Shown here one piece after another: positions 1-36,743 of a stretch of 64,000 nt of DNA. The notes beneath the pieces were generated by a model that saw only the letters and a list, made by a program, of their open reading frames with translations, was not told where the DNA came from and ran no database searches. Numbering within the stretch: the stretch's first letter is position 1; each line of letters opens with the position of its first letter. The position numbers and the translations under genes are program-made. The stretch is taken from NCBI RefSeq assembly GCF_988243305.1, contig NZ_OZ547136.1. The stretch is one strand, 5' to 3'.

Positions 1-415
1 AGCGACAATCAATGCTCTGACACCAGTGCTGTGTGGATGGATAAGCTACTTCAGGCTGACGGAAGTCAGAGGAGTGCTGGAGGAGCTGGATGGCTGGATC
101 AAACGGAAACTGCGTTGCTTGTTGTAGCGGCAGTGGAAGAGACCGCTAACCCGGGCAAAGAACCTGCAAAGAGCAGGACTGAGTAAGGACAGGGCAATGA
201 TCTCTGCGTACAACAACCACGGGCCATGGTGGAACTCAGGGTCAAGCCATATGAATCAGGCGATAAAGAATACATGGTTCAGGAGGCAGGGTCTGATATC
301 ACTGCTGGAACAGTAGAGGCAGTTCCAGAGTTAACATGAACCGCCGTATGCGGAACCGCACGTACGGTGGTGTGAGAGGACGGCGGGAGTGATCCCGCCT
401 CCTACTCGATCAATT
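1..415 (+). mobile_element. Group II intron, 3' portion (end of intron-encoded protein ORF plus probable domains V-VI)
   Basis: Frame 2 reads ...CGWISYFRLTEVRGVLEELDGWIKRKLRCLL, then after a TAG RQWKRPLTRAKNL..., typical of a group II intron RT/maturase C-terminus; hairpin ccgtatgcgg/ccgcacgtacgg near 340-375 resembles domain V. Window starts inside the element; 3' boundary approximate. Confidence 0.55.
2..315 (+). pseudogene. Group II intron RT/maturase, C-terminal fragment interrupted by an in-frame TAG at 125-127
   Basis: Same reading frame continues across the TAG with maturase-like sequence (RQWKRP...); no database check. Confidence 0.5.
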
Positions 416-464
416 TTAAAACACCTCCTATGTAGGTGGTGATCGTTCATGTGGGGCTTTCTGA

Positions 465-640
465 CAGACTGCCTCGTCATTCCATTCGTATCGCCAGTAA
501 CTGGCGTTTGTATTGTGGCAGTTCTGGTATACGTTTCCCTGTGTATCTGCACTGGTTCAGCAAGGTTTGAAAAGGAGTATCCCTTGCAAATAACCGAAGC
601 ATTACTTTCAGAGCCGGAGCTGTTTTTGTTGCTGTGATCC
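465..640. repeat. Copy A of a roughly 180-bp conserved non-coding element (inverted relative to copy B at 7836-8030)
   Basis: By-eye alignment of 465-640 with the reverse complement of 7836-8030 gives roughly 75-80 percent identity, including shared blocks ggtttgaaaagga, gcaaataaccgaagc and ttcagagccgg. Confidence 0.5.
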
Positions 641-676
641 ATTTCAATTTTTTCGTGACAAATTATTTATAAATAT

Positions 677-1939
677 ATGATTATGTTTTTAAAAATGCAG
701 GCTGAAAGTATGAAGAATAAATACAAATTAAATGAGTTTTTGGATGTAAAACGCCTTCAGACCCTGCAGGACAACTTTTCAAAATCAATGATGATCGCGC
801 TCGTGGTTGTGGATGAGAATGGTATCCCGGTCACTAAGCCCAGCGGTTTTTCAGACTTCTGCATGCGTTCGCGTCTCAACCCGACACTGGCGCACCACTG
901 TTATGAAAGCGACAACGCTGGTGGCCGGGCCGCGATGCACGCTCGCAAACCGGTGGTTTATCGCTGCCACTGCGGTTTTGTCGAATTCGCTGTCCCAATC
1001 ATGATTAACGATCATTATCTCGGTGCTTTTATTTCCGGTCAGGTAAAAGTCGAAGAAGAGAAAGAACAGAGCATTTCCTATATTCTGAATAATAATGACG
1101 TCTGGAAAGATAATCCTTGGTTAATTAATTTGCACCAGAATACACGTCGCATGCCGTATGAGCGTTTTGAGTCTACTGCCTCGACGTTACTACACGTATC
1201 GTCTTATCTGGTCGAACAAGCGCACACCAATAATATCCAACGCGAACTTCGTAAAAAGGATCTTGCACTGGCTAATGAGTTAAGAAAACGTGTAGAGATA
1301 GAACGCTCACTACATGAAGCTGAATTTAAAGCGCTCTCTTATCAGATAAATCCGCACTTTTTATTTAACGTATTAAATACCATTGGCCGGTTAGCTTTTC
1401 TTGAAGATGCGCAGCGTACCGAAACAATGGTGCACGATTTCTCTGACATGATGCGCTATTTGTTACGTAAAAATAGTCACGGCCTGATTACTCTGCGTAA
1501 TGAAATAAATTACGTCAACAACTATATGTCGATCCAAAAAGTGCGTATGAGAGACCGTTTCGATTACCTGTGCGATATCCCGGAAAAATATCTGGATGTA
1601 GTCTGCCCGTTTTTGATCCTGCAACCGCTGGTGGAAAACTTCTTTAACTACGTAGTGGAGCCAAGGGATAGCAATAGTCATCTGCTGATCCGTGCCACGG
1701 ACGATGGCCTGAACGTGATTATTGAAGTCACTGACAATGGCGACGGCATCGCACCAGATACCATTAATCGCATTTTATCAGGCGACCAAAAATTGCAAAA
1801 AGGCAGTATTGGCATTAACAACATAAAAAATAGATTGAAGTTGTTATTTGGCGAGAGCTATGGCTTGGAAATAATGAGCCCTAACAAACCCAGGATGGGT
1901 ACAACCATTAAACTTCGGTTCCCAATGCAGGAAGCCTGA
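677..1939 (+). CDS. Cytoplasmic sensor histidine kinase with N-terminal PocR-type ligand-binding domain (LytS/YesM-type kinase core)
   Basis: 420 aa ORF; Cys/His-rich PocR-like N-terminus (CYESDNAGG...[14 protein letters not shown]), H-box NPHFLFN, C-terminal HATPase-like region; low GC. Confidence 0.7.
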
Positions 1940-1955
1940 TACAGGAAAAGGACAT

Positions 1956-3011
1956 ATGTTTACCATTGTTATCGTTGAAGATGAGCCCATCGAATTAGAA
2001 TCCCTGCGGCAGATTATCTCCCAGTGTGTGGAAAACGCTGCGATCCATGAAGCCTCAACCGGTAAAAAAGCGATTCACTTAATTGACCAACTGAGTCAAA
2101 TCGATATGATCTTAGTGGACATTAATATTCCGTTGCCGAACGGTAAACAGGTGATTGAATATCTGAAGAAAAAAAACAGCGATACTAAAATCATCGTAAT
2201 CACGGCCAATGATGACTTTGATATAGTACGCAGCATGTACAACCTTAAAGTGGATGATTATCTGCTCAAACCAGTGAAAAAATGTATCTTGACCGACACC
2301 ATCAAAAAAACCCTAGCATTCGACGAAGGAGAAAATGAAAAATCCCGCGCCCTAAAACAGAAAGTGTTCGCCATGATAGACGATTGCGATTACACCCAGT
2401 GGCACAACTTTATTTTTGACACGCTCAACGGTGCCTGTCCGGTGGATATGATAGAAGAGGATAAGCGCAAAGACGTGATCGATTTTCTGGAAATAGTTAG
2501 CCAGTATATGACCGCCAAAGGGGAAAAGTTAATGCCGACTAACCGTAAAGTCGCCGCGCTGATCAAAGACATCAACCAGTATGGCATGATGGAAAGCCGC
2601 TATTTCCGCATCATGATCAGCCTGCTGACCATTAGCGAAGAGCTGTTTGATTACGCATTAAAAGGCTATACAGGCAATATCGATTTTATCGAACGAGCGA
2701 AATTCCATATTGAGAAAAATATTCTCAGAAACTTGACGCTCGATGACGTGGCAGCAAAATCGTTTGTCAGTGCCTGCTATTTGAGCCGTACCTTTAAGAA
2801 AATTACCGGGTTCGGGTTTTCGAACTATATTGCCACGCGTAAAATTACTATCGCCAAATCGTTATTGCGGTTCAGTGACTTACAAGTAAATACCATTGCG
2901 CTGGAACTGGCATACCAGGATTCAAACTATTTTTGCCGCATCTTCAAAAAAGATACTGGCATGACCCCCTCTGATTATCGAAAAGTCGTGTCCCCGGGAA
3001 TTACACGGTGA
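1956..3011 (+). CDS. Response regulator with receiver domain and AraC-type HTH output (YesN-like)
   Basis: 351 aa; N-terminal receiver (IVEDEP...LVDINIP), C-terminal AraC HTH (YLSRTFKK...DSNYFCRIFKKDTGMTPSDYRK); start 17 nt after the kinase stop with RBS aaaagga. Confidence 0.75.
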   Translation: MFTIVIVEDEPIELESLRQIISQCVENAAIHEASTGKKAIHLIDQLSQIDMILVDINIPLPNGKQVIEYLKKKNSDTKIIVITANDDFDIVRSMYNLKVDDYLLKPVKKCILTDTIKKTLAFDEGENEKSRALKQKVFAMIDDCDYTQWHNFIFDTLNGACPVDMIEEDKRKDVIDFLEIVSQYMTAKGEKLMPTNRKVAALIKDINQYGMMESRYFRIMISLLTISEELFDYALKGYTGNIDFIERAKFHIEKNILRNLTLDDVAAKSFVSACYLSRTFKKITGFGFSNYIATRKITIAKSLLRFSDLQVNTIALELAYQDSNYFCRIFKKDTGMTPSDYRKVVSPGITR

Positions 3012-3139
3012 TGGCGTGATTTTGCATTGGCCCGATAATGAAAGCAAAATAGTCCAACACGCCCGCAAGATAGTTTACGCCCACTTGTCAGGTTCCTATC
3101 CTAAGATAGGAATAAACTTCCCAAACAAGTGGGCTCGCT

Positions 3140-4291
3140 TTGAACGATTACCTGTTTACCTCCGAATCCGTTGCCGAAGGGCATCCCGATAAAATGGCGG
3201 ACCAAATTTCTGATGCCATTTTGGATGCGATACTCCTACAGGACCCGTGGGGTAAGGTTGCCTGTGAATGCTTGGTGAAAACTGGTGCCACTATTGTTGC
3301 CGGAGAAATATCTACCCATGCCGCCGTGGATATTGAGAAGATTGTCCGCAACACCATAAAAGAGATTGGTTACGACCATTCGCGATTGGGGTTTGATGGC
3401 AATACCTGCTGTGTATTAAATATCCTTGGCAAACAGTCCGCCAATATTGCTGACGGCATTCGCGGCCACTCGATGGAAGAACTGGGGGCGGGCGATCAGG
3501 GCATCACCTTCGGTTACGCCTGTGATGAAACGTCGGAACTGATGCCCGCCACGCTGGTATACGCCCATCGTCTGATGGAGCGCCAGGCGCAGTTGCGTAA
3601 ATCCCAACGGTTACCATTTTTACTCCCTGATGCCAAAAGCCAGGTTACCCTGCGCTATCAGGATAATCGTGTTCATTCAGTAGATACCGTTGTGGTGTCT
3701 ACCCAACACAGCCCTGACGTTTCTCTGGACGCGCTACGGGAAGCGGTCATCGAAGAAATTGTTAAACCTGTGATGCCTTCGCACTGGCTCACGCCACAAA
3801 CCCGCTTTCTGGTGAACCCTGCAGGCAGTTTTGTGATTGGCGGGCCGGTGGGTGACTGCGGGCTAACGGGGCGTAAAATTATTGTTGATACCTATGGCGG
3901 CGCGGCTTGCCATGGCGGCGGCGCGTTTTCAGGCAAAGATCCGTCGAAAGTCGATCGTTCCGCCGCCTACGCTGCTCGCTATGTGGCGAAAAACATCGTC
4001 GCCGCTGGGCTTGCCTCACGCTGTGAAGTCCAGTTGGGATGGGCCATCGGCCTGCCCCGCCCTGTTTCCGTCAGGATTAACACCTTCGGTACACAAACAG
4101 TGTCATCTGAAGCGTTGCTGAGAGGCGTTAACAGCCATTTCGATCTTAGCGTGTTCGGCATCATTACTACGCTTGATCTGCTGGTCCCCCGCTATCGTAA
4201 AACAGCCTGCTATGGTCACTTTGGTCGCGACAGCTTTCCGTGGGAAGTTACGGACAAAGCGGCGCTATTATACGAAGACGTTGGACGTTAA
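3140..4291 (+). CDS. S-adenosylmethionine synthetase (methionine adenosyltransferase) paralogue
   Basis: 383 aa; MetK hallmarks [63 protein letters not shown]. Apparent TTG start with no obvious RBS; exact start uncertain. Confidence 0.8.
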
Positions 4292-4335
4292 GCCGACGAC
4301 GCGCAGCACAGTTGAATTTATTACAGGAGAAATTT

Positions 4336-4881
4336 ATGTCTGGGAAAAGTTTAGGCTTAATCGAAACCGTCGGGATGTCTGCGGCGGTAGAAGCCGCCGA
4401 TGCCGCAATGAAATCCGCTAACGTTAGTCTGGTAGGCTATGAATTGACGAAAGGCGGCGGGATGGTGACCGTGAAGCTGGAAGGGGAAGTGGGCGCAATT
4501 AACGCGGCGGTAGCGGCAGCCATCAGCGCGGCAAGCCGGGTTGGCGAGGTGTATGCCCATAAGGTGATCGCCCGCACCGCGCAGCATATCGAGCAGATTA
4601 TTCACTCTAAAGTGACCGCCGGCGTCGCAGAACCTCAACCTGAAGTGCCTGCTGCACAACCGACACTGCAGGCTGAAAACGCGCCTTCACAGACATTCCC
4701 GGTGGTTAACCTTGATACGTCAATCAGCGCATCCTGTATGGATGTCACTGATGAAACGCTGAAGTCCATGGAGCAGCATCAACCGGTTAAACCCTCAATA
4801 GAAAACACTAAACCTACAAAATCTGATGTACCGCAGGAGGCAGCAAAGAAAGGTCCTCGTTCCAGCGGCAAGAAAAAATAA
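4336..4881 (+). CDS. Bacterial microcompartment shell protein (BMC-H, PduA/EutM-like) with about 90-aa low-complexity C-terminal tail
   Basis: N-terminal 90 aa MSGKSLGLIETVGMSAAVEAADAAMKSANVSLVGYE... align with PduA/EutM; RBS aggag upstream of ATG at 4336; tail rich in P/A/Q/E/K. Confidence 0.75.
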   Translation: MSGKSLGLIETVGMSAAVEAADAAMKSANVSLVGYELTKGGGMVTVKLEGEVGAINAAVAAAISAASRVGEVYAHKVIARTAQHIEQIIHSKVTAGVAEPQPEVPAAQPTLQAENAPSQTFPVVNLDTSISASCMDVTDETLKSMEQHQPVKPSIENTKPTKSDVPQEAAKKGPRSSGKKK

Positions 4882-4899
4882 GTAAATTGCTATGACGCT

Positions 4900-4935
4900 G
4901 CCGCGATAACAATTTCTTTATCGCGGCATTTTTTT
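4900..4935 (+). terminator. Rho-independent terminator after the BMC-H gene
   Basis: Hairpin gccgcgataa / ttatcgcggc followed by a T-run. Confidence 0.6.
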
Positions 4936-5237
4936 GCTTAACAGATAAAGTAAAAAACCATCTGCATAGCGGGCGGCTTTGACACGGCCCCCTGAAAGGG
5001 GGCTTAAACACTACCCTTTCAGGCCCAGTTGTATTTGTCTTTCTTCTTCCTCTTTTGCTACCTTGTTCGAAAAGGGACGCTCGTCCTCGCCCACTGTTCT
5101 GTATGCATACCTGCTCCCACTGCAAATTATATTGCTGGGCTATGTTAACAAGCCTATATGCTATTAAAAACTCATGAGCAACATATTGATAATACCATTC
5201 TTATATATCCACGCTTAAGTAAATAACTCTTACATAA

Positions 5238-5435
5238 CTAACTATTCCATCTCACTTCTTCCTTAGCGAGTTTTCGGTATGCAATAGGAGCTATACCAAA
5301 GCGGCGAGTAAATGCCCTTGTAAATGTCTGCTGAAAATCAAACTGATATTTAAAAGTGATAGTCGTGACCGATTCAGTAGTAGAACGTAGTTCTTCTGCT
5401 GCATTTATTAATATACCTACCAATAGAAATACCAA
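5238..5435 (-). pseudogene. MarA/TetD-like AraC-family regulator, C-terminal fragment
   Basis: 65 aa ORF holds only the second HTH (KYQFDFQQTFTRAFTRRFGIAPIAYRK), similar to the TetD C-terminus; no intact N-terminal half in frame. Confidence 0.5.
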
Positions 5436-5553
5436 TGATATGTTTAAACAATTTCTGTAAATACCATTTTGAATATCCAGCTTTTTTGCCTCAATATTTA
5501 TTGAGAGTTCTACCTCAAGATTTTCATCAATTCATTTAGCAAGCTCATTGATA

Positions 5554-6225
5554 TCAGCGCTGTTTTTTATAGTAGCGTTCATTTTTATCGATGCCTGTGA
5601 AGGTTGATTGGGTCAACTCCAGTACTATGCAACCCTCTCTGAAAAGGGATTTATTATCAGGTTGCAGAATGCAACTTCGCACCACCCCCGTAAACAAAGA
5701 AAAAAGCAGGAACGCCAGAGCCTCACTACGAATTTCCGAACATATTTCTCTATATAACTTACCTTTTTCGAAAATATAACATAGTAATTTCACAAAATTA
5801 TTGACATCCACCATTTTTTGTAAGAAATTTATTCTTATATCATCCGGACATTCTTCACAAAAAAACACAATATAAATTACATTCCGTAAGTGTACATTAT
5901 ATTGTAATTTAATCAGGCTACGTGATAAGCAACGATACATCGCTTTAACCGGTTCAGAAACTCTCCCATTTTTGATGGCTGTAAGCTCATCAAATAATGA
6001 TAGTGGTACCCGCTCGATGACTTGTCGCAGAAGATCTTTTTTTTCGTTGAAATACCAGTATATGGCCCCCCGAGTACAACCTGCGCGCACCGCAATCATC
6101 TCCAGTGTCGTCTTCGAAAAGCCCGTCTCACAAAAGCAGAACTCTGCCGCATCCAGGATTTGTTTGCGGGTTTCTTCCGCTGCAAATTTTGTGTGCCGCA
6201 CCACTGTTGAAATCTCCATTGACAT
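5554..6225 (-). CDS. TetR/AcrR-family transcriptional repressor
   Basis: 223 aa; N-terminal TetR HTH (TRKQILDAAEFCFCETGFSKTTLEMIAVRAGCTRGAIYWYFNEK). Confidence 0.7.
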   Translation of the reverse strand: MSMEISTVVRHTKFAAEETRKQILDAAEFCFCETGFSKTTLEMIAVRAGCTRGAIYWYFNEKKDLLRQVIERVPLSLFDELTAIKNGRVSEPVKAMYRCLSRSLIKLQYNVHLRNVIYIVFFCEECPDDIRINFLQKMVDVNNFVKLLCYIFEKGKLYREICSEIRSEALAFLLFSLFTGVVRSCILQPDNKSLFREGCIVLELTQSTFTGIDKNERYYKKQR

Positions 6226-6324
6226 CTTATTTCAGGAAATATCTCTGGGGCATTTAGTACCAACCCAACAGCCATTTACTCAGGCGCAGTATGTTGTTTA
6301 CTGCACCTGAATATTTACTCATGC

Positions 6325-7389
6325 TTATGATTGCTCAGCTTCAGTCTTATCCGATGATTTCTTATTTCTGCGGCTGAAGAACCCGGCAATTAACATATAG
6401 AAGAGAGGAATATAAAAGATTGCCAGTATCGTAGCAGTGATCATCCCTCCAACCACACCAGTACCGATGGCATGTTTACTTCCGGAACTTGCTCCAGTCG
6501 AGACAGCCAGTGGGATAACCCCCATTACAAATGCCAGCGAAGTCATAATTATCGGTCTTAACCTCACTCTCGCCGCTTCAACAGCAGCCTCTTTAATGCT
6601 TAGTCCTTCTTTCTCATGCAATTCACGAGCAAACTCCACGATAAGTATGGCATTTTTCGCAGACAGCCCTATTGTTGTTAATAAACCGACCTGGAAAAAG
6701 ACATCGTTACCAAGGCCGCGCAACAAAGTAGCACAGACAGCCCCCAGGACACCAAGCGGAACAACCAGCATGACCGAGAAAGGAATGCTCCAGCTTTCAT
6801 ACAGTGCAGCCAGACACAGAAAGACGATCAACAGTGAAAGTGCATATAGTGCAGGAGCCTGAGAACCTGAAAGTCGTTCCTCAAAAGACAAACCTGTCCA
6901 GGAAATATGGAAACCTTCGGGAAGTCTTGCCGCAATATCCTCAATTGCTTTCATTGCATCCCCGGAACTGTATCCTGGTGCCGGTTCCCCCAGGATTTCG
7001 ACAGCAGAGATACCATTATATTGCTCCAGTTTTGGTGAGCCATAAATCCATTTGCCTGTTGCAAAAGAGGCAAAGGAAACCATGTCGCCATCACTGTTAC
7101 GGACATACCATTTATCAAAATCCTGCGGTGATATACGTGAGCCGGGTTCGCCCTAAATATAGACTTTTTTCACCCGTCCACGATCGTTAAAATCATTTAC
7201 ATACATCGAACCCCAGGCTGCTGGCATTATGTTGTCGACGTCGCTCATGCTCAGTTTAAGCGCCTGAACTTTCTCGTCATCAATCAGAATCTGGAACTGA
7301 GGCTCATCGTTCATGCCGTTAGGACGAACCATGTTTAACGCTGGACTTTTCGCCGCTTCAGCAAGAAGCTGATTTCGGGCCTGGATCAT
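6325..7389 (-). pseudogene. RND efflux transporter (AcrB/AcrF-like), C-terminal remnant, frameshifted and 5'-truncated by IS2
   Basis: ORFs 6325-7083 and 7153-7389 match the C-terminal third of AcrB-type pumps (VRPNGM...[27 protein letters not shown]...[13 protein letters not shown]) in two frames; upstream part absent, IS2 end at 7482. Confidence 0.7.
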
Positions 7390-7481
7390 TTTTTCATGGC
7401 CAGCTCCGCTACGATCCTCGAGGAACAGGTCAAACCCTGTAGCATTCCCCAGTTCTGATACGGCAGGGGGCGTTTTAAAAC

Positions 7482-7838
7482 TAGACTAGCCCCCAGAATC
7501 TCCAGACAACCAATATCACTTAAATAAGTGATAGTCTTAATACTAGTTTTTAGACTAGTCATTGGAGAACAGATGATTGATGTCTTAGGACCGGAGAAAC
7601 GCAGACGGCGTACTACACAGGAAAAGATCGCTATTGTTCAGCAGAGCTTTGAGCCGGGAATGACGGTCTCCCTTGTTGCCCGGCAACACGGTGTGGCAGC
7701 CAGCCAGTTATTTCTCTGGCGCAAGCAATACCAGGAGGGAAGTCTTACTGCTGTGGCCGCAGGAGAACAGGTCGTTCCTGCCTCTGAACTTGCTGCTGCC
7801 ATGAAGCAGATTAAAGAACTCCAGCGCCTGCTGAACAA
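7482..7838 (+). mobile_element. IS2 left end, truncated about 360 bp into the element
   Basis: tagactagcccccagaatctccagacaaccaatatcacttaaataagtgatagtc matches the IS2 left inverted repeat region; orfA (InsC) sequence diverges from IS2 after ...KELQRLL. Confidence 0.75.
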
Positions 7839-7863
7839 AACGCCGGATGTCTCCCGGCTCTGA
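7573..7863 (+). pseudogene. IS2 orfA (InsC) truncated, with a foreign 9-codon tail
   Basis: [56 protein letters not shown]... is IS2 InsC-like; the C-terminal residues do not continue as IS2. Confidence 0.7.
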
Positions 7864-8030
7864 AATTAAGGCTTCGGTTATTTGCACGAAATGTTCCTTT
7901 TCAAACCCTGTTGAATTTTGTTAAGCCGGTGCAGACACACGGAAAACGCACATCAACACCGGACGGTACGATACAAACACCAGTGACTGGCGGGACGAAG
8001 GGAATGACGAATCAGTCAGGAAATGATGAC
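7836..8030. repeat. Copy B of the roughly 180-bp conserved non-coding element (inverted relative to copy A)
   Basis: See copy A; lies between the IS2 truncation point and the small ORF/alpA. Confidence 0.5.
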
Positions 8031-8141
8031 AAACAGTTGGCAGACCAGAGGAGTCAGCAGAAAGATGAGCGGGAGTGTCGCCAGCATCGGGGACAGGGCT
8101 GATTTCCGCAATACCAGCGCCGGCATTGCAACACGTTTCAT
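8016..8141 (-). CDS. Hypothetical 41-aa hydrophobic peptide, translationally coupled to the AlpA-family gene
   Basis: MKRVAMPALVLRKSALSPMLATLPLIFLLTPLVCQLFVIIS; its ATG overlaps the alpA stop in an ATGA arrangement. Not in the ORF track (below 60 aa). Confidence 0.3.
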   Translation of the reverse strand: MKRVAMPALVLRKSALSPMLATLPLIFLLTPLVCQLFVIIS

Positions 8142-8371
8142 GCTGCTGCTCCTCGTGATTCCTCAATTCGCTGCTGCATCCACTGCTCCACTTCACTTTT
8201 GTACCAGCGGCTGCTGCGCCCCAGTTTGATGGGTTTAGGGAAATGACCTTCACTGATCAGCTTGTAAAACCATTTATCGGTCATACCGGTGAAACTGGTG
8301 ATGTAGTTCATGTCGATCAGGGGATCGTCGGCACGCAGTAACACGCTGTCGTGGCTTGTTGTGGTCAACAT
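8138..8371 (-). CDS. AlpA-family phage/island transcriptional regulator (excisionase-like HTH)
   Basis: 77 aa; ...YITSFTGMTDKWFYKLISEGHFPKPIKLGRSSRWYKSEVEQW matches AlpA-family DNA-binding proteins. Confidence 0.7.
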   Translation of the reverse strand: MLTTTSHDSVLLRADDPLIDMNYITSFTGMTDKWFYKLISEGHFPKPIKLGRSSRWYKSEVEQWMQQRIEESRGAAA

Positions 8372-8439
8372 GGTCAGAATGTCCTTTGTGAGATTTATGA
8401 AGTTTGTGCGAATGCAGGGAAAGATGCTGAACCGAGCTT

Positions 8440-9015
8440 TCAGAACGGTCCTGCAGATCCGGGATAGCCGGGATTACCGGCGAGGCAACGGGCTTCCGGA
8501 TCGCACACACCACGACGATCGCGGGCGAAATCACTGAACGCCCATATCAACTCTTTGAGGATGTTTTCACAGTCCGGTGAACGACTGTCCAGCACCACAT
8601 CCCGGGTGATCTGCTTCTGATACTGCTTTGCTTCACCCGGTGACGCGAAGCCCAGTACGTTGCTCCAGGCATCCAGAATCAGCCGGTCCAGTTCAGGGCC
8701 GTCGAAATACTCCTGTCTGACACACAGCACCACGTGGTATTCCGGCTTTTCAGGATGACGGGTCAGGAGCCAGCAGAGATCTCGTCCAGGTGTTGCATTC
8801 ATCAGCGCACTGACGGTTTCGATAAAGTCCATACCGAACCAGATCTTTCTGCTGCTGAAGGTACGGTCATATTCACATGGCAGACGAAGCAGGATCCGTC
8901 GTATCCGGGAGCCGGACTGCTCACGCAGCGCACGCTCAAGGACACCGATGATTTTGTTCTGATAAGACGGCCAGAAGGGTGCCAGGCTATAGTCGAAATA
9001 AGGGATAGCATTCAT
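8440..9015 (-). CDS. YfjJ/YagK-like (inovirus Gp2 family) island protein
   Basis: 191 aa from MNAIPYF (start trimmed from the ORF track); family assignment from memory of CP4-57-type islands. Confidence 0.45.
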   Translation of the reverse strand: MNAIPYFDYSLAPFWPSYQNKIIGVLERALREQSGSRIRRILLRLPCEYDRTFSSRKIWFGMDFIETVSALMNATPGRDLCWLLTRHPEKPEYHVVLCVRQEYFDGPELDRLILDAWSNVLGFASPGEAKQYQKQITRDVVLDSRSPDCENILKELIWAFSDFARDRRGVCDPEARCLAGNPGYPGSAGPF

Positions 9016-9272
9016 AAGATATGCTCCGTTATGCGCAGCCCACAATGCGTCCTGCCCGTGAATGAGCTGACGTGTTATAGCTTGCGGATGGGGTTGATGG
9101 AATAAGTGAAGAACCGAAGCAGAACGGGAAGATCAGGTCACCGACAAGGGACAGAACACCGGATGTGGTTAAGAGTGAATGATCTCCGTTGACTTCAGTT
9201 CACATCATTAAGCAAGGTGGTAAGGTTTTACCGACGGAATGTTTCCAGGACAGGAAGCTCAGGATTTAAGCT

Positions 9273-9839
9273 TCAGAAGTGAGGGTTACGAGGACGCCCT
9301 GCAGCAGGACGTTCAGGAACTTCATTGCAGCCGTAGGCACACAGCCCGTCTTTTTGCTCTTCTTTTGCCAGATAATGCAGGGCACCGCGAATATTATCGA
9401 TGCTTTCAGGATCGTTGTGGCGCACAGGAATGTTGATGTTGTATGTATAATGCGGCTGATATGTACAGCGGTGTGCCGAACCGCTGTTATGTGTAATAGA
9501 CCGCCAGCATTCCGTAATCCGCTCCGCAAAGGGATATATTTTTTTAACCCTCTGACGATCGATCCACAAAACCGCATGCGCATGAAAACCATGATCAGCC
9601 GTCCATTCAATCACCCAGAAGAAACCAACGATATTTTCAAATTGTTCCACCTGCTCCAGCAGCATACGCAACTGCAATTCAAGCCAGCGATGATCAGGTT
9701 GTAAGAAATCGGGCGTATCTTTCCTGTAGAAGAAATCCATCCGTAAGGCCCGCAGGCAGGAATAGCGTGCCATCATTTGATTGATGTGATTGTCAAGTAA
9801 AGCGGTAAAAAACCAGTTTGGTGTGTAAGATTTAGGCAT
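9273..9839 (-). CDS. YfjJ/YagK-like (inovirus Gp2 family) island protein
   Basis: 188 aa; HxH motif (FHAHAVLWIDRQ) as in Gp2-like proteins; adjacent paralogue at 8440-9015. Confidence 0.45.
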   Translation of the reverse strand: MPKSYTPNWFFTALLDNHINQMMARYSCLRALRMDFFYRKDTPDFLQPDHRWLELQLRMLLEQVEQFENIVGFFWVIEWTADHGFHAHAVLWIDRQRVKKIYPFAERITECWRSITHNSGSAHRCTYQPHYTYNINIPVRHNDPESIDNIRGALHYLAKEEQKDGLCAYGCNEVPERPAAGRPRNPHF

Positions 9840-10671
9840 GTTGATGACTCCTGAAAGTTAATGATGTTTTAAGCTCTGTGAACGAATTAATGCTTTCGCT
9901 CATAACGGTAATAACTTACAGATGGTATTTATCAGGCATGCTGTAGCAGAATGGATACGACGGGTTATTAACGATACGCAGCATTATGCAGAAAGAAATG
10001 GATTATCTGATGGTATTAGCTAAAGAGATGAGATAAACGAGGAGTAAAGAAAATACAGACTCAATAAAACATCACGAAATACTGTAAAATACGAGCTAAA
10101 ACCCCACTACCTGGAGATTAAGAAACATATTGCGACCAATCACATCATAAACTACAAACTTGCTCTCAGTGAGTCTGCAAAAACGTGTACAAGGCCAACA
10201 CATATCTGTAACCTGATAAAATCATACACTCTCATTTAATCTGTTAAAAACAACTCACTTCAAAACATGAGCGTTAACGGGTACACGGTACCAGAATAAA
10301 ATATACCATGGATGGATAATTTTCATTTTGTTTAACATACAAGATAATCAGAAACGAACAAATATAATCAGGAATTCACTCTGTTAATTTCATTGTTTAT
10401 CCTGCGCTGTTAAACATGACGAAATCATGGATACCTTATCAAAGAGTAAACATCCAGTTAATCAGTGATGACAGAAGTATTGATATTTACCAGAATAGTT
10501 AAAACACTTCAGGTCAACAACAATCATCGTTAAGTCAATACAGTTCATTATGGATAATGACTAAAATCAATTGCTGTTTCAGTGAAGACTGATAACAGGT
10601 AGATATTAGCAACAACGTAGTAAAATAACTTATCTGAGTATCGTATGAATTACAGTAGTTATGATTGAATG

Positions 10672-10721
10672 AAGGAGAAGGTGGAGAAGGTGGAGAAGGT
10701 GGAGAAGGTGGAGAAGGTGGA
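10672..10721. repeat. Tandem repeat, 9-bp unit GTGGAGAAG, about 5.5 copies
   Basis: Direct read: (g/a)aggagaag then gtggagaag x4 then gtgga; embedded in a purine-rich plus strand within a 1.3 kb AT-rich non-coding region. Confidence 0.9.
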
Positions 10722-11157
10722 TACCATGATAATGGTGGCAATGAAGATTAGACAAGGAAGGGAGTAAGTATAATCGGGTGAGGGTCAGAGTAATGGAATG
10801 AGTAAAGATAGAGAGTAAGTAAAAACAGAGTGAATAAAGACAAAGTGAATATAATTATAGTAATAAACCTAAATTAAAAATACTTGCGTATAATGGAAAG
10901 AAATAAGAATTAAGAATAGCGTATGAGTCGTAGTCATGACCTGGCTACAAAAAGTCATTCCATCTGGCTGTCATTCAGACACACTCCCCAAACATTCGAC
11001 TACAAAGTACTAACAGAAAATTAACTGATGTATTATTCTTCTGCCCTGAATGAACATCCGGAAGTATAATCTCCCCTAGCTTCACGTTCACCGGGAAAAA
11101 CGAAGCTATTTACTTTGATGATCGCTGACGAAAAACCGAACAGGCAGTTGCATAATC

Positions 11158-12252
11158 ATGGACAACAGAGAAAAAGAGATACTCAGGATCCTGCGTCACA
11201 ACCCACTGATCCAGCAGAATGAAATTGCTGAGATTTTACAAATCAGTCGGTCGCGTGTTGCTGCACACATTATGGATCTGATGCGCAAAGGTGCGATTAA
11301 AGGGAAAGGCTACATCCTGACAGAACAGGAATACTGTGTTGTTCTTGGGGCGATTAACATGGATATCCGTGGGGTGGCGGATATCCATTATCCACAGAAA
11401 TCCTCCAGTCCGGGCAGTATTTACTGCTCTGCCGGAGGTGTCGGACGCAACATCGCCCATAATCTCGCCCTTCTGGGCCGCAATGTGCATCTGATATCTG
11501 CTGTAGGCAATGATTTTTATGGCGAAACATTACTGGAGCAGACCCGCCTGGCCGGCGTTAATGTCACCAATTGTATTCGACTGAACGGACAAAATACTTC
11601 AACTTATGTCTCCATCGCCGACCTACAGGCAGAAACAGTGATGGCGATTAATGATACCCATATTCTGCAACAACTGACGCCGCAGTTGCTGGACGCCTCA
11701 CGTATGTTAATCCGTCACGCTGGCGTGGTGCTGGCTGACTGTAATCTGACACCTGCCGCCCTTGAATGGATCTTTACGGTCGCTGACGGCATTCCCGTTT
11801 TTATTGATACAGTGTCGAAATTTAAGGCTGTTAATGTAAAAAACTGGCTTCCGCATATCCATACCCTGAAACCCACACAAAAAGAACTGGAGATATTATG
11901 GGGTTCCCCTGTCAACAATGAGACCGATCTACTCACCGCAGTGAACGCACTACATCAGCAGGGTGTGCAACAGATTTTTGTCTGGATGGGAGATGAATCC
12001 GTTTTCTGTAGCCAAAGAGAGGGAGAACAATTTCTGCTCACACCGCCCGTTCATGCCGTTGTGGACAGCTTTGGTGCAGATGATGGCTTTATGGCAGGTC
12101 TGCTTTACAGTTTTCTGGAAGGAAGTAGTTTCCAGGAAAGTGCTCACTTTGCGATGGCATGTGCAGCACTGTCACGTGCCAGCACCAGCATCAATAACCC
12201 AACACTTTCCGTTAATAACGCGCAATATCTGTTAAAAACATCCCGGGGGTAA
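11158..12252 (+). CDS. YeiI-like protein: N-terminal winged-helix HTH fused to a PfkB-family sugar kinase domain
   Basis: 364 aa; N-terminal HTH (ILRILRHNPLIQQNEIAEILQISRSRVAAHI), PfkB motifs (GGVGRNIAHNLALLG; DSFGADDGFMAG). Confidence 0.65.
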   Translation: MDNREKEILRILRHNPLIQQNEIAEILQISRSRVAAHIMDLMRKGAIKGKGYILTEQEYCVVLGAINMDIRGVADIHYPQKSSSPGSIYCSAGGVGRNIAHNLALLGRNVHLISAVGNDFYGETLLEQTRLAGVNVTNCIRLNGQNTSTYVSIADLQAETVMAINDTHILQQLTPQLLDASRMLIRHAGVVLADCNLTPAALEWIFTVADGIPVFIDTVSKFKAVNVKNWLPHIHTLKPTQKELEILWGSPVNNETDLLTAVNALHQQGVQQIFVWMGDESVFCSQREGEQFLLTPPVHAVVDSFGADDGFMAGLLYSFLEGSSFQESAHFAMACAALSRASTSINNPTLSVNNAQYLLKTSRG

Positions 12253-12270
12253 CACCCGGGATTGTATTTT

Positions 12271-13521
12271 TTATGCCAGCCCAATGAAAAAACCAGCGAT
12301 AGTCGCACTCATCAGGTTTGACAGGGTGGCCGCCGCCAGTGCACGCATGCCCAGTTGTGCAATTTCAGGTGCACGCTGAGGTGATATGGCTGAAAAGGCA
12401 CCCACCACCACACCAATGGAGCCAAAGTTGGCAAAACCACACAGTGCAAAAGAAATAATTGCGGTGGTTTTCACATCAAGCGTACTGCCTGGCTGTAAAT
12501 AGGGTGAAAGATTGAGATAAGCAACAAATTCGTTAATTGCCAGCTTCTGACCAATCAGACTTCCTGCCAGTGAAGCATCCGCCCAGTCAACGCCCATGAT
12601 CCACGCAAGGGGAGCCAAAATCCAGCCGAAAATGCCCTCAAGGGTAATATTACCATAACCAAACCAGCCTCCGATACCACCGATTATACCGTTAATCAGA
12701 GCAATAATAGCAACAAAGGTCATCACTACCGTTGCAACTCCGACAGCGATTTTCAACCCGGTCATCGCCCCGCTGGCCACTGCTTCAATAACACTTTTGG
12801 GAGGAGTATCAGTGAAAGAAAGATTTTCAAAAGTGACTTTTGATTCTTCTGTGGCCGGACTCAGAATACGGGCAAAAAGGATCCCCCCCGGGATCGCCAT
12901 CAACGACGCCGCCAGCAAATAGTCAATCGGAACCCCCATCCCGGCATAGCCGATCATCATTGAACCGGCAATCGAAGCCATCCCACTGCAGATGACAGTA
13001 AATAATTCATTACGATTCAGACGATTAATAAACGGTTTTACAATTGCCGGGATCTCGTTTTGCCCCAGGAAAATTGTCGTTACTGCCACAAATGACTCAA
13101 CTTTACTTATGTTCAGAGCTTTCTGAAAAATCCCCCCCAGAATACGGATAAGCCCCCCCATCACTCTGATGTAGTACAGCAGACTGATAAGCGCTGTAAC
13201 AAAAATGATGGCAGGAAGTACACGGAAGGCGAAGATAAAACCCGCCCCATCGAACAGTACGTCCATTTTGTCCCCTACCAGAGAGCCAAAAATAAAGGCA
13301 CTGCCCGCATCACTGTAAGACATAATTTTATGTACGCCCAGTGCAGCCTGTTCAACCAGCCATTTCCCCGGGGGGAAATAGAGCATGATCCCACCAATCG
13401 CGATTTGAAGAACCAGTGCAGCTCCTGTGGTACGTAAACTGATACGTTTTTTATTCACTGATAGTAGAAATGCAATTATCAGCAATACTGCCATTCCCAC
13501 TATACTTCTCATGATGTCCAT
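12271..13521 (-). CDS. psuT: NupC-family nucleoside transporter (PsuT/YeiM-like)
   Basis: 416 aa polytopic membrane protein with NupC-like sequence; position next to psuG/psuK. Confidence 0.65.
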   Translation of the reverse strand: MDIMRSIVGMAVLLIIAFLLSVNKKRISLRTTGAALVLQIAIGGIMLYFPPGKWLVEQAALGVHKIMSYSDAGSAFIFGSLVGDKMDVLFDGAGFIFAFRVLPAIIFVTALISLLYYIRVMGGLIRILGGIFQKALNISKVESFVAVTTIFLGQNEIPAIVKPFINRLNRNELFTVICSGMASIAGSMMIGYAGMGVPIDYLLAASLMAIPGGILFARILSPATEESKVTFENLSFTDTPPKSVIEAVASGAMTGLKIAVGVATVVMTFVAIIALINGIIGGIGGWFGYGNITLEGIFGWILAPLAWIMGVDWADASLAGSLIGQKLAINEFVAYLNLSPYLQPGSTLDVKTTAIISFALCGFANFGSIGVVVGAFSAISPQRAPEIAQLGMRALAAATLSNLMSATIAGFFIGLA

Positions 13522-13604
13522 AATGCTCTCCCCTTATACCTGAACCAGACACGGAATCTGGTTCAGGTAATTTCGGGCGACCTCACACTGCCCGTTCATT
13601 TATA

Positions 13605-14540
13605 TCAGACAATTTGTTGATATTCTTTTGCTATCTCACAGGCCAGAACTGCGTTGTTGAATACCAGCTGAATATTTGATTTCAGACTGTCACCACCGGT
13701 TAATTCTGCCACCCGTGCCAGCAGGAACGGTGTGCTTTCTTTACCGGTAATGCCCTGCACTTCCGCTTCTTTTACGGCCTGGTCAATTGCTGCATTAATT
13801 TTCTCTTCCGCCATGGCGTAAGCTTCCGGAATCGGATTGGCAACAACCAGACCACCGTTCAGGCCGGTTTGCCATTTCACTGCCATCGCGCGGGCAATCT
13901 CTTTTGCACTGTCCAGACGTATACTGACCTCAAACGGACTGGTGCGGCAAAAAAATGCCGGCAATGATCTTGTCTGATAGCCAATTAAAGGTACACCAAA
14001 TGTTTCTAAATATTCCGTGGTTAACCCTAAATCGAGAATGGATTTCGCGCCTGCACAAACCACGGTGACATTAGTATGTGCCAGTTCCTGTAGGTCGGCT
14101 GAAATATCAAAAGTGTGTTCTGCACCGCGATGAACGCCGCCAATTCCTCCTGTGGCAAAAACTTTAATTCCGGCAAGAGCAGCAATAATCATGGTTGAAG
14201 CTACCGTTGTTGCACCATGTTTTCCTTCAGCAATAACGAAAGGTAAATCCCGGCGACTGACTTTGGTAACGTTATGTCCTTCGCGACCCAGTAATTCAAT
14301 CTCATCTTTACTTAACCCGACTTTCATTACACCGCCAATAACGGCAATGGTGGCTGGTACTGCTCCGTGTTTACGTATAGTTTCTTCGACTTCAATAGCC
14401 GTCTGAGCATTCTGAGGAAAAGGCATACCATGTGAGATAATTGTTGACTCGAGAGCAACAACAGGTTTTTTACTGTTAATGGCATCCTGTACTTCCGGTG
14501 AAATTTGCAGTAATTCAGAAGAAATGGTTATTTCAGACAT
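13605..14540 (-). CDS. psuG: Pseudouridine-5'-phosphate glycosidase (PsuG/YeiN, IndA-like)
   Basis: 311 aa; close to E. coli YeiN by memory (…VVALESTIISHGMPFPQN…GGIGGVHRG…). Confidence 0.7.
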   Translation of the reverse strand: MSEITISSELLQISPEVQDAINSKKPVVALESTIISHGMPFPQNAQTAIEVEETIRKHGAVPATIAVIGGVMKVGLSKDEIELLGREGHNVTKVSRRDLPFVIAEGKHGATTVASTMIIAALAGIKVFATGGIGGVHRGAEHTFDISADLQELAHTNVTVVCAGAKSILDLGLTTEYLETFGVPLIGYQTRSLPAFFCRTSPFEVSIRLDSAKEIARAMAVKWQTGLNGGLVVANPIPEAYAMAEEKINAAIDQAVKEAEVQGITGKESTPFLLARVAELTGGDSLKSNIQLVFNNAVLACEIAKEYQQIV

Positions 14541-15468
14541 TCTGTTTCTCCACTAAGCTTTTAACGTTAGCAACAGATAATTCAGGATTATTGGTATACT
14601 CACTGGCCAGCGCCATTGATGAACACCCCTGTGCAAATCGAATGGAATCAATAAATGGCATATTATCAACCCAGCAGGAAGCCAGCCCTGCCATCATGGC
14701 ATCCCCTGCCCCCGTAACGTTCACCACCTGTGTTTTTACTGGCGGCGACCAGCCGCTGGCTCCGTACAGTTCGCTGTAATAAACTCCATCCCCCCCCATG
14801 CTGAGCACAAGGCGATTCAGACCATGTGTATGGAACCATACCGCCACTTTTTCAGCATCATTCCGATCTGAAAGCGAAATACCACTGAGTGTTTCTGCTT
14901 CAAGCCGGTTGGGCTTGAGAGTATGAATTTGTGCTAAATGTTCACGAATTTTGACACACTTCCATGCAGATACCGGGTCAACAAATACCGGAACCTTACC
15001 TGCATTATTCAGTAGCCAGACAAGTGTTGACTCACTGATATTACAGTCTGCAACAATAACCTTCGCTCCCTGAATAAAATCAATATGCTGTGATAAAAAC
15101 TCAGCTGAAATATGTTCACTAATCGTCATGTCATTTATTGCCACCAACATTTCACCGGTTTTATCGAGAAGTGATAAATAACTTGAGGTATTTTCTCCAT
15201 TAACAATCAGACATTTATCAACATTAACGCCGGACTGAGTCGTTTGTGCTAATAATGATTGCCCGTAGAAATCATCTCCCACAGCTGACATCAGCCATGA
15301 GTTTTTACCCAGCAGAGCAAGATTATGTGCAATATTACGCCCCACACCTCCGGGCGTGAATTTAATCTTCCCCGGGTTAGAATCAGCATAATTTAAGGAG
15401 GCATACGAATATCCGGCTATATCTATATTGGCAGAGCCAATTGTGATGATGTATTCCTTATCACACAT
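14533..15468 (-). CDS. psuK: Pseudouridine kinase (PsuK/YeiC, PfkB family)
   Basis: 311 aa from MCDKEY with RBS aggag; PfkB motifs GGVGRNIAHNLALLG and GAGDAMMAG; overlaps psuG start by 8 nt. Confidence 0.7.
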   Translation of the reverse strand: MCDKEYIITIGSANIDIAGYSYASLNYADSNPGKIKFTPGGVGRNIAHNLALLGKNSWLMSAVGDDFYGQSLLAQTTQSGVNVDKCLIVNGENTSSYLSLLDKTGEMLVAINDMTISEHISAEFLSQHIDFIQGAKVIVADCNISESTLVWLLNNAGKVPVFVDPVSAWKCVKIREHLAQIHTLKPNRLEAETLSGISLSDRNDAEKVAVWFHTHGLNRLVLSMGGDGVYYSELYGASGWSPPVKTQVVNVTGAGDAMMAGLASCWVDNMPFIDSIRFAQGCSSMALASEYTNNPELSVANVKSLVEKQNV

Positions 15469-16003
15469 GGCACATCTCCTGACATTTAAAAACACAAAAA
15501 TAATAAATCTGTATTTCTATTCGACCACGCAGATAGAGTTGAACATATATTCAAAATCAAACATGTGTTCACTTTATGCCTGTTTTTAGAAATGTAAATA
15601 CCAGTCCAGAATCAAAAAGTGAAAAATGAAAACAGGATCACAATTTTTATCGTTAATCCATGTTGTCCTTATCCGGTTTTATGGCGTTGCCCTGTTTCAT
15701 CAGGTTATTTGCATGAACGGAATAAATACCGGAGATGACAGGAAACACCATAAGATATTCAGGATGTTACGATGAATTTCATGAGGATCGCTAAAAATGA
15801 GCCTGTTTAATAATTTTATGCAAACACCTTATACCAGGGCTTCCCTTCGGAGATATCAATGACCCCGACAGCGCTCTCACTGCCCTGGTTGCTGGTTTCC
15901 GATATCCTCTTAACTTGCAGGCTCATCCCGCATTTCACTCATGGTGAATAAGGCACATAATGGTCTGGAGTCAATTCTGGCTTACGATTTGTAAATATAA
16001 TAA

Positions 16004-21294: not shown

Positions 21295-21394
21295 ACTCTT
21301 CTTCCCGTCAATGGAAAAATTTTCACACCCATATTACCTGAATGATAAACCGGATTAGTGTGATCCGGTTCAGTGAAATCAACAGGATACCGGT

Positions 21395-22279
21395 ATGCCA
21401 TTCAGCAATTCTTCCCTCTCCGCGCAAGTGAAATCATATCTGACGTTTCTTCCTGAAGAAATTCGCCAGAAAATCCTTGAACATCTCCACGGTGTTATTC
21501 ATTACGAGCCCGTGATTGGCATTATGGGTAAATCCGGCACCGGCAAAAGCAGTCTGTGTAATGCCATTTTTCAGTCCCGTATCTGCGCCACGCATCCCCT
21601 GAACGGCTGCACCCGCCAGGCTCATCGCCTCACCCTGCAGATTGGTGAACGCAGAATGACGCTGGTCGATCTGCCCGGCATTGGTGAGACACCGCAGCAT
21701 GATCAGGAATACCGGGAGCTTTACCGTCAGTTACTGCCGGAACTGGATCTGATTATCTGGATCCTGCGGGCTGATGAACGTGCGTATGCTGCCGATATTG
21801 CCATGCATCAGTTTTTACTGAATGAAGGTGCAGATCCCTCGCGTTTTCTGTTTGTTCTCAGCCATGCCGATCGCGTGTTTCCTGCTGAAGAATGGAATGC
21901 CACAGAAAAATGCCCATCCCGTCACCAGGAACTCTCACTGGCAACTGTTACAGCCAGGGTGGCAACCCTGTTCCCGTCATCATTTCCGGTACTCCCCGTT
22001 GCTGCGCCTGTCGGCTGGAATCTTCCGGCGTTTGTGTCGCTGATGATCCACGCCCTGCCACCGCAGGCAACCAGTGCGGTTTATTCACATATCCGGGGGG
22101 AAAACCGCTCTGAACAGGCCCAGAAACACGCACAACAGACTTTTGGTGACGCCATCGGGAAAAGTTTTGACGACGCCGTTGCCCGGTTCACTTTTCCGGT
22201 CTGGATGTTACAGCTTCTGCGTAAAGCCCGGGACCGCATTATCCGCCTGCTAGAAACACTGTGGGATCGTCTGTTCTGA
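21395..22279 (+). CDS. YeeP/YfjP/YkfA-family GTPase (CP4-type island)
   Basis: 294 aa; P-loop GIMGKSGTGKSSL and DLPGIGE motif. Confidence 0.7.
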   Translation: MPFSNSSLSAQVKSYLTFLPEEIRQKILEHLHGVIHYEPVIGIMGKSGTGKSSLCNAIFQSRICATHPLNGCTRQAHRLTLQIGERRMTLVDLPGIGETPQHDQEYRELYRQLLPELDLIIWILRADERAYAADIAMHQFLLNEGADPSRFLFVLSHADRVFPAEEWNATEKCPSRHQELSLATVTARVATLFPSSFPVLPVAAPVGWNLPAFVSLMIHALPPQATSAVYSHIRGENRSEQAQKHAQQTFGDAIGKSFDDAVARFTFPVWMLQLLRKARDRIIRLLETLWDRLF

Positions 22280-35113: not shown

Positions 35114-35536
35114 ATGAAACTGGCCCTGACGCTGGAAGCCGACAGCATTAACGTGCAGGCACTGAACATGGGGCGCATTGTCGTTGACGTCGATGGTGTT
35201 AATCTCGCTGAACTGTTTAATAAAGTCGCGGAAAATGGTTATTCACTCCGCGTGGTGGATGAGCGTGTCACTACCGAAACACCGGCGACCTCTGCCAGCC
35301 CTCATCAGTTGCCGGAAGACAATACAGTGATACAGAGCGTAATGCCATTAGCCACAGAAACGGCGCTGGATATTCTGATTGTGTGGCTGCAGGACAATAT
35401 CGACTGCGAATCGGGGATTATCTTCGACAACGATGAGGATAAAACGGATTCGGCAGCACTGTTGCCCTGCATTGAACAGGCCAGGGAAGATATCCATACC
35501 CTGCGCCAACTACAGCTTCTGCACCAGAACCGGTAA
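35114..35536 (+). CDS. Hypothetical protein in the position downstream of cbtA (YeeW-like position)
   Basis: 140 aa ORF beginning 53 nt after the Tn10 right end; family not verified. Confidence 0.4.
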   Translation: MKLALTLEADSINVQALNMGRIVVDVDGVNLAELFNKVAENGYSLRVVDERVTTETPATSASPHQLPEDNTVIQSVMPLATETALDILIVWLQDNIDCESGIIFDNDEDKTDSAALLPCIEQAREDIHTLRQLQLLHQNR

Positions 35537-35620
35537 ATATTACTCACCATACTTCATTCCACTGACGCCAGCCTGAACAGGGCTGGCGTTTTCATTTATC
35601 TGCAAAAAGGAAAAACGATT

Positions 35621-36463: not shown

Positions 36464-36573
36464 TCCCGAGTGTGATTCCCTTTCGATATCAAAAGGGACT
36501 GCGGGTATAATTGAGGGTACATTTTTAATCAAACCAAACAAATCAGATTAATATCAATATGATAAAAGAAATT

Positions 36574-36595
36574 TTCGATTCCGAGTCCGGCACCA
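36574..36595 (+). other. Island right junction (attR-like): direct repeat of the tRNA-Phe 3' end, one G missing
   Basis: ttcgattccgagtccgg-cacca matches the T-arm/acceptor 3' end of E. coli tRNA-Phe (TTCGATTCCGAGTCCGGGCACCA); not a complete tRNA. Confidence 0.7.
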
Positions 36596-36609
36596 CTAAT
36601 TCTTAAGAA

Positions 36610-36631
36610 CCCGCCCACAAGGCGGGTTTTT
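36610..36631 (+). terminator. Rho-independent terminator (native tRNA-Phe downstream terminator)
   Basis: cccgcc cacaa ggcggg followed by ttttt. Confidence 0.6.
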
Positions 36632-36743
36632 GCTTTTGGATCTGACAATAACCTTCACGAAAAAACTTAGCTTATAAGGTCTGGGGGAATTACTCTCGCC
36701 ACGTTAACGAGAGTAATTTTATTGATATTAATCTCCTGATACT

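Follow-up and report, generated by a model that had tools for sequence, protein, structure and literature searches.

A decayed efflux locus ending at an IS2 fragment in a genomic island of Escherichia coli

Does a short stretch of an E. coli genomic island, in which sequences related to an efflux pump, a TetR-family regulator and a MarA-like activator lie next to one another, still encode a working or regulatory system, or is it what remains of one? The stretch occupies positions 5238 to 7481 of the window, by which is meant the whole stretch of 64,000 nucleotides that was analysed. On the minus strand, read from 7472 down to 5238, an RND permease fragment, a TetR-family gene and an AraC-type HTH ORF are arranged collinearly (Table 1), and all three are also annotated by RefSeq/PGAP in a genome that is nearly identical. 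The initial annotation described a decayed efflux locus ending at IS2, and this description is borne out by profile matches, by the alignment to IS2 and by the PGAP annotation. Taken together, the stretch is very probably what is left, in nonfunctional form, of the 3' part of an accessory efflux operon acquired by horizontal transfer, and it is carried in an island beside the yghD/gsp/sslE/glc genes. A scan of the window for tRNA genes detected none, and the attachment tRNA therefore lies outside the window. There were no Rfam matches at the gathering threshold in positions 4000-12000, and a search of the literature on this specific locus found nothing.

Table 1. Features of the decayed efflux locus, with positions in the window
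Feature	Position	Strand	Basis or remarks
MarA/RamA/SoxS-like pseudogene (AraC family, DNA-binding domain only)	5238..5582	-	nucleotide alignment
14-bp deletion between HTH1 and HTH2	5412..5413	-	common to window-type and CFT073-type lineages
1-bp deletion in homopolymer (coding strand A7->A6; T-run on + strand)	5482..5487	-	frameshifts first HTH
Nonsense change W17->TGA in MarA-like gene	5532..5534	-	alignment; window-type lineage only
TetR/AcrR-family regulator, intact 223-codon ORF	5554..6225	-	Pfam TetR_N, alignments
Hairpin with 15-bp stem in RND-TetR intercistronic spacer, no U-tail	6277..6313	-	RNA fold
3' remnant of RND permease (HAE-1, MexB/AcrB-type)	6325..7472	-	residues ~663-1044 of 1044; Pfam ACR_tran, blastn, PGAP
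Premature stop Q769->TAG	7153..7155	-	alignment; window-type lineage
9-bp spacer TTTTAAAAC (+ strand) between RND homology and IS2 terminus	7473..7481		alignments
IS2 left-end fragment (terminal inverted repeat and truncated orfA), 351 bp	7482..7832	+	megablast, Pfam HTH_Tnp_1, PGAP

Of 5426 complete E. coli genomes, 538 carry the remnant, 529 of them at 99% identity or more and the other nine at 90-95%, and at least 80% of its length was matched in 528 independent complete genomes. The window is E. coli chromosome: many complete genomes matched a 3.1-kb query spanning the locus at 99.9% identity, and positions 1-10,255 of the window differed from strain 51008369SK1 at only two sites (5228 and 7224). 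The locus is a common decaying accessory relic, present in about one-tenth of E. coli genomes, and the pseudogene status of both its pump and its IS is already recorded in RefSeq.

The pump gene is represented by its 3' part. Significant matches to Pfam ACR_tran were obtained for the ORFs at 6325-7083 (E 1.6e-93, profile positions 787-1020 of 1021) and 7153-7389 (E 2.3e-16, profile positions 686-762), and PGAP describes 6325-7470 as 'efflux RND transporter permease subunit; internal stop; incomplete; missing N-terminus'. With 382 of 1044 codons left (~37%), the description of a surviving C-terminal third is accurate, and the full-length protein of ~1040 aa, with 12 TM helices and two periplasmic loops, is not encoded. 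The two ORFs had been taken to lie in two frames, which proved incorrect: translation of 6325-7482 and alignment place both in the same frame, split by a single CAG->TAG change. A frameshift in the remnant was ruled out, as the end coordinates of both ORFs are multiples of three and translation is continuous with one stop. The window, E118 and NCTC86EC have TAG as codon 769; the codon is CAG in CFT073, UPEC129, WP3-W18, JCM20135, EC24, strain 51489 and Citrobacter koseri (C. koseri). The label 'AcrB-like' is correct at the level of the family; among solved structures, however, MexB scored higher (1587 bits) than AcrB (1400 bits). The RND protein is 85% identical to a chromosomal pump of Pectobacterium. 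One carrier, H26, has an IS1 inserted within the RND remnant. Judging by these reading frames, no functional pump could be made from the window locus.

The hairpin in the spacer between the RND remnant and the TetR gene has a predicted stability of -34.3 kcal/mol (z -3.4; 0 of 200 shuffles equally stable). Its inverted repeat has an equivalent in the intact E. coli locus, and also in C. koseri with wobble-compatible changes.

At the 5' side of the remnant, the blastn match with L008, the intact locus of E. coli, stops at 7472, nine bases that belong neither to RND homology nor to IS2 follow (7473-7481), and the left end of IS2 begins at 7482. The RND/IS2 junction was identical in all eight carriers of at least 99% identity that were aligned through the breakpoint. 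By megablast, positions 7482-7832 share 95-98% identity, terminal inverted repeat included, with copies that carry the annotation 'IS3-like element IS2 family transposase'; Pfam HTH_Tnp_1 matched with E 1.3e-19, and PGAP labels the fragment 'transposase; missing C-terminus'. The initial annotation held that the 5' side of the pump gene had been replaced by an IS2 end, and this stands as regards the position of the left end, but the IS2 is itself a fragment. Its matches to IS2, an element of the IS3 family, run from the terminal repeat through most of orfA and end at 7832, and the element is therefore a stub of 351 bp, compared with 1331 bp for the full-length element. Relative to a complete IS2, with both ends and orfAB, it lacks orfB and the other inverted repeat, and because these are missing the stub is immobile. 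Outward transcription of the remnant driven by IS2 is not backed by any promoter-like site, and the stub faces in the opposite direction.

The extent of the deletion was mapped by alignment to intact loci, in which the order is a divergent TetR gene, a palindrome-bearing promoter region, a membrane-fusion-protein (MFP) gene (374 aa), an RND gene (1044 aa), a TetR gene (221 aa) and a MarA/RamA-like gene (115-119 aa). C. koseri has this arrangement with a MarA-like protein of 115 aa and an adjoining integrase, while Pectobacterium has the same gene order with a last gene for a full-length Rob-like protein (301 aa), whose N-terminal domain shares 53% identity with the MarA-like protein of E. coli. 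Four of the 5426 complete E. coli genomes, among them STO_Bone1B, carry the operon intact; its place in the chromosome is that of the window remnant, and it has the same flanks (sugar kinase / NupC / psuG / psuK). In four further E. coli genomes (e.g. 51489) a different IS3-family element cuts the RND gene at about codon 55, and the TetR and MarA-like genes are intact. Two blocks of synteny with L008 were identified by blastn, the first between window 5070-7472 and L008 15323-12903 (91.9% identity) and the second between window 11123-15647 and L008 7140-2616. L008 7141-12902 (5.8 kb) has therefore been replaced by window 7473-11122, which consists of the IS2 stub and an AlpA/YfjJ-type island module. 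No full-length RND frame is recoverable: RND codons 1-662, the MFP gene (present in the intact loci L008, L004 and L007) and the divergent TetR gene are physically missing, as is the promoter. Alignment to intact loci thus placed the deletion and showed a nonsense codon where a frameshift had been expected.

For the MFP of the intact operon the best NCBIfam model was MexA, and all pump and regulator scores fell below the equivalog cut-offs (AcrB 1541 vs 2150; MexA 486 vs 750), so that the pump and regulator proteins are not orthologues of AcrB, AcrD, MexB, OqxB, AcrR, RamA, SoxS or MarA. There is no outer-membrane factor gene in the intact operon, and the pump therefore presumably uses TolC. 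When plasmids were searched with the whole intact operon, the one notable match was a 73%-identical Klebsiella plasmid pump, and carriage on plasmids is unsupported.

The MarA-like gene is a pseudogene. Aligned with its intact counterparts in E. coli 51489 (119 aa) and C. koseri (115 aa), it is recognisable over its whole length, from an ATG at 5580-5582, which overlaps the 3' end of the TetR gene, to a stop at 5238-5240; the overlap between the TetR gene and the MarA-like start is 23 nt in L008 and 11 nt in C. koseri. Only a 65-codon ORF (5238-5435) remains open. This ORF covers HTH2 and matches just the second half of the Pfam HTH_18 profile (E 3e-9). It had been suggested that the gene retains only its second HTH; this is not the case at the level of the DNA, as the first-HTH sequence KKAGYSKWYLQKLFKHIIGISIGRY is still present at ~5413-5490, out of frame. 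Both the window and CFT073 lack the 14 bp at 5412/5413, which E. coli 51489 and C. koseri retain. The plus-strand base at 5532 is T in the window, E118 and NCTC86EC and C (TGG on the coding strand) in the other five genomes aligned. Two HTH motifs in a single frame of ~105-130 aa are found in the intact 119-aa homologue and not in the window. Against solved structures, the intact activator matched RamA (7bef, E 1e-29), Rob (1e-28), SoxS (2e-27) and MarA (1e-24), and the UniRef label for the MarA-like protein is 'Tn10 TetD protein'. On the evidence of these lesions, no functional activator could be made from the window locus.

The age of the decay relative to the divergence of the alleles was assessed from substitution patterns. 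Comparison of the pump remnant with intact alleles gave a dN/dS of 0.086, against a baseline of 0.072 between intact RND genes, and comparison of the TetR gene with the intact allele gave 0.31, against a baseline of 0.33 between intact TetR genes. As the dN/dS of the remnant is near the baseline, purifying selection was acting while the 8% divergence from the intact E. coli allele built up, and the gene was inactivated recently compared with the divergence of the alleles. Between the window and CFT073 there were no synonymous and three nonsynonymous differences in the RND gene, plus the nonsense codon, and one synonymous and three nonsynonymous differences in the TetR gene, plus a frameshift. 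These recent differences would be consistent with neutral drift, the counts being too small for statistics.

The distribution of the lesions among lineages suggests an order of events. In the common ancestor of the window-type and CFT073-type lineages, an IS2-associated rearrangement would have deleted the divergent TetR gene, the promoter/operator, the MFP gene and RND codons 1-662, leaving the 351-bp IS2 left-end stub at the break. This truncation, together with the 14-bp deletion in the activator gene, would form the first step, both changes being common to the two lineages. In a second step, the window lineage would have acquired Q769* in the pump gene and, in the activator gene, W17* and the loss of 1 bp, and in a third the TetR frameshifts would have arisen in the CFT073-type lineage. 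The TetR gene of the window has kept an open frame but lost the operon promoter and the presumptive operator, and is probably not expressed.

A wider interpretation, which we consider unlikely, places the emphasis on the parent operon. The intact unit would be an uncharacterised island-borne cassette of an efflux system and a global activator, moving among Pectobacteriaceae, C. koseri and E. coli and inactivated at least twice independently in E. coli, once in the window and CFT073 types, by IS2 at codon 663, and once in the 51489 type, by the other IS3-family element at about codon 55; residually, the window TetR would act as an orphan regulator in ST410-like lineages.

The initial annotation stated that the TetR-family gene looks intact, which is correct for the window, and proposed that it may now be an orphan repressor. 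TetR_N (PF00440), the HTH domain, was matched at residues 23-69 (E 6e-14), and the open frame has the full length of a two-domain protein (~200-220 aa). The 221-aa intact-locus proteins are collinear with it, and identity to the protein of the intact E. coli locus is 91%. The closest structures were SmeT, TtgR and NalD; residues 9-209 align to residues 2-201 of SmeT (2w53; E 4e-25), and TtgR is likewise aligned over its full length. The protein family is narrow: beyond E. coli it has members in C. koseri, at 76% identity, and in Pectobacterium and Brenneria, at ~50%. A scan of genome contigs of species representatives with the TetR protein gave no confirmed relative, these representatives apparently being without the island.

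That this protein has been kept as a functional repressor of other genes, for example of another efflux operon by cross-binding, is quite improbable. The integrity of the frame and of the HTH, the intact state of the gene in the majority allele and the absence of any excess of damaging change in the comparison with intact alleles would all fit such a role, but the gene has been frameshifted independently elsewhere. In CFT073 there is a frameshift in the G-tract at 5679-5684, giving a product of 187-191 aa, and three more CFT073-type genomes (UPEC129, WP3-W18-CRE-03 and JCM 20135) have in common an extra base (+1) at the 5858 T-run, in addition to deletions in the G-tract, and their products are annotated as 121-130 aa long. 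E118 has a -1 at 6066 and NCTC86EC a -1 at 6037. The NCTC86EC change may be an assembly error, as the other NCTC86 assembly bears the label of the full-length form, and long-read errors in homopolymers could account for some of the single-base indels seen in other assemblies. In an evenly spaced sample of carriers, ~40% had the label 'TetR family', and the product was truncated in five of five labelled genomes checked. From these annotation labels and eight checked sequences, the proportion of carriers with a fully intact TetR ORF is estimated at roughly 55-60%. The recent changes in the gene, three nonsynonymous to one synonymous, also speak against a retained repressor.

Intact loci from three species share an invariant 20-bp block with the palindrome TAGTATGAATATACTA in the divergent promoter, and this palindrome is plausibly a TetR operator. 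It had no matches in the window at up to three mismatches, and a 46-bp probe containing it matched E. coli genomes only in the four with an intact operon. Neither a candidate cognate operator nor a regulated operon is found in the window, the promoter region and the palindrome, to which the operator role is provisionally assigned, having been deleted. A consensus scan of 4850-8200 returned seven promoter-like sites, against 5.7 +/- 2.4 in shuffled sequences, which is chance level, and none of the seven falls within the 99 bp that precede the TetR gene. The suggestion of an orphan repressor is thus unsupported, given the frameshifts elsewhere, the deleted palindrome and promoter-like sites at chance level. 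The window TetR gene is most likely a pseudogene-in-waiting that has not yet been hit and would be drifting neutrally.

Two further explanations can be dealt with briefly. It is scarcely credible that the C-terminal RND fragment or the 65-aa HTH2 ORF is an expressed new small protein with its own function: PGAP calls the 65-aa ORF a CDS, and, by the topology of AcrB/MexB, the product of ORF 6325-7083 would have five or six transmembrane helices, but MarA-type proteins need both HTHs, as is established for MarA, Rob and SoxS, promoter and start-site signals are not above chance, the ORF boundaries vary between lineages and the RND remnant of H26 is interrupted by IS1. Equally implausible is that the truncation and the stops are sequencing or assembly artefacts of a working pump gene, a general possibility, one of the MarA-like lesions lying in a homopolymer run; sequencing error is excluded because the remnant occurs in 538 of 5426 genomes with the same breakpoint wherever this was sequenced through, unrelated island DNA stands in place of RND codons 1-662 and the MFP gene, whole lineages have the substitutions that created the nonsense codons, and the 528 genomes with at least 80% coverage are independent.

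The reading as a nonfunctional relic of an acquired operon makes this locus a textbook case of gene decay in a mosaic genomic island, with little weight for biology at large. The IS2 breakpoint and the Q769*, W17* and TetR frameshift changes provide clean phylogenetic markers of the history of the island across E. coli lineages. The rare intact version, in four of 5426 E. coli genomes and in C. koseri, combines a MexAB-like pump with a RamA-like activator that are normally missing from E. coli; this cassette could be relevant to acquired efflux resistance and is a mildly interesting by-product of the analysis.

Comparison with known systems places both the parent operon and the relic. Like MexAB of Pseudomonas aeruginosa and AcrAB of E. 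coli, the intact parent pairs an MFP with an RND permease of 1044 aa, which aligns end to end with MexB and AcrB at the bit scores given above; in contrast to MexAB, it has no OprM-like gene. The window copy differs from MexB and AcrB in consisting of residues ~663-1044 with a premature stop, and is a pseudogene. In smeT-smeDEF and ttgR-ttgABC a divergent TetR-type gene lies beside a palindrome, and the intact locus likewise has a divergent TetR gene beside its palindrome. The surviving TetR of the window aligns with SmeT, TtgR and NalD over nearly its whole length; unlike these proteins and AcrR, it is the second TetR of its locus, encoded downstream of the pump and in the same orientation, and its operon is gone. 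As in marRAB and ramR-ramA, a repressor is paired in the intact locus with a small two-HTH AraC-type activator, whereas here the repressor is of the TetR type, its gene overlaps the start of the activator gene and the pair is located at the 3' end of a pump operon. The intact-locus activator scores below all of the equivalog cut-offs for RamA, SoxS and MarA, and compared with these activators the window copy is dead.

The parent of the relic is an uncharacterised efflux operon, found intact in E. coli, C. koseri and Pectobacterium. Its gene order comprises a divergent TetR gene followed by genes for an MFP, a MexB-like RND pump, a second TetR and an overlapping MarA/RamA-like activator, with a full-length Rob-like protein as the last gene in Pectobacterium. 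Intact copies are rare in E. coli (4 of 5426 complete genomes), and two different IS elements mark independent truncations of it within this species.

Features of the window and of the intact loci. Pseudogenes are those that RefSeq annotates in strain 51008369SK1, which is nearly identical to the window.
Feature	Locus	Coordinates	Strand	Remarks
Intact efflux operon	L008 (E. coli STO_Bone1B)	9045-15155
Intact efflux operon	L004 (C. koseri)	4893-11003
Intact efflux operon	L007 (Pectobacterium)	4921-11528
RND-TetR hairpin	Window	6277-6313	-	15-bp stem; directly 3' of RND stop codon; no U-tail
Tandem repeat	Window	10674-10721		Perfect, 9 bp, GGAGAAGGT x5.3; non-coding island DNA
NupC/NupG nucleoside transporter	Window	12253-13501		Frameshifted
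GTPase-family gene	Window	21375-22258		Frameshifted
gspE (T2SS-beta cluster)	Window	35178-36671		Internal stop

The divergent promoter has largely diverged between the three genera, except for an identical 20-bp block, TAGTATGAATATACTAGAAT (L008 9726-9745 and equivalent positions in L004 and L007). Within this block, a probable TetR operator, lies a perfect 6-4-6 palindrome. The intact E. coli locus also has the hairpin between the RND and TetR genes, which is stable (z -3.4) and recurs in C. koseri with G-U-compatible changes. Lying between pump and regulator genes, it may act as an intercistronic mRNA stabiliser or attenuator.

Within the MarA-like gene, an A7 run (window 5482-5488) has been hit by distinct 1-bp deletions in two lineages, inside the run in the window type and at the adjacent base in WP3-W18-CRE-03. 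Either deletion regains the frame lost through a downstream 14-bp deletion; in WP3-W18-CRE-03 this leaves a 114-aa ORF open, its first HTH scrambled. This pairing of deletions is probably a chance event at a homopolymer.

Strain EC24 has the same RND breakpoint as the window, followed by two IS2 left ends of ~41 bp each in a palindromic, head-to-head arrangement (L014, the EC24 relic locus, ~4300-4390), with sialate-esterase and nanR genes beyond them. These features suggest that the relic underwent additional rearrangement mediated by IS2. At its other end, the EC24 relic breaks within the TetR gene and adjoins a TerB-domain pseudogene.

The relic lies directly downstream of grpN-grpS, a glycyl-radical propanediol-utilisation microcompartment cluster (window 1-4881 and DNA upstream of it; L001 1-7982). 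In intact-operon genomes, the place of this cluster is taken by an SLC13 permease and a two-component system. The cluster holds reverse transcriptase/maturase fragments, a group II intron remnant. The 9-bp tandem repeat probably behaves as a VNTR, as positional matching with strain 51008369SK1 is lost from 10704, within the repeat. A CP4-type integrative-element module (window 7833-11122) has replaced the 5' portion of this operon in the relic; it runs from the IS2 stub to a sugar-kinase gene and encodes AlpA-like, hypothetical and YagK/YfjJ-family proteins.
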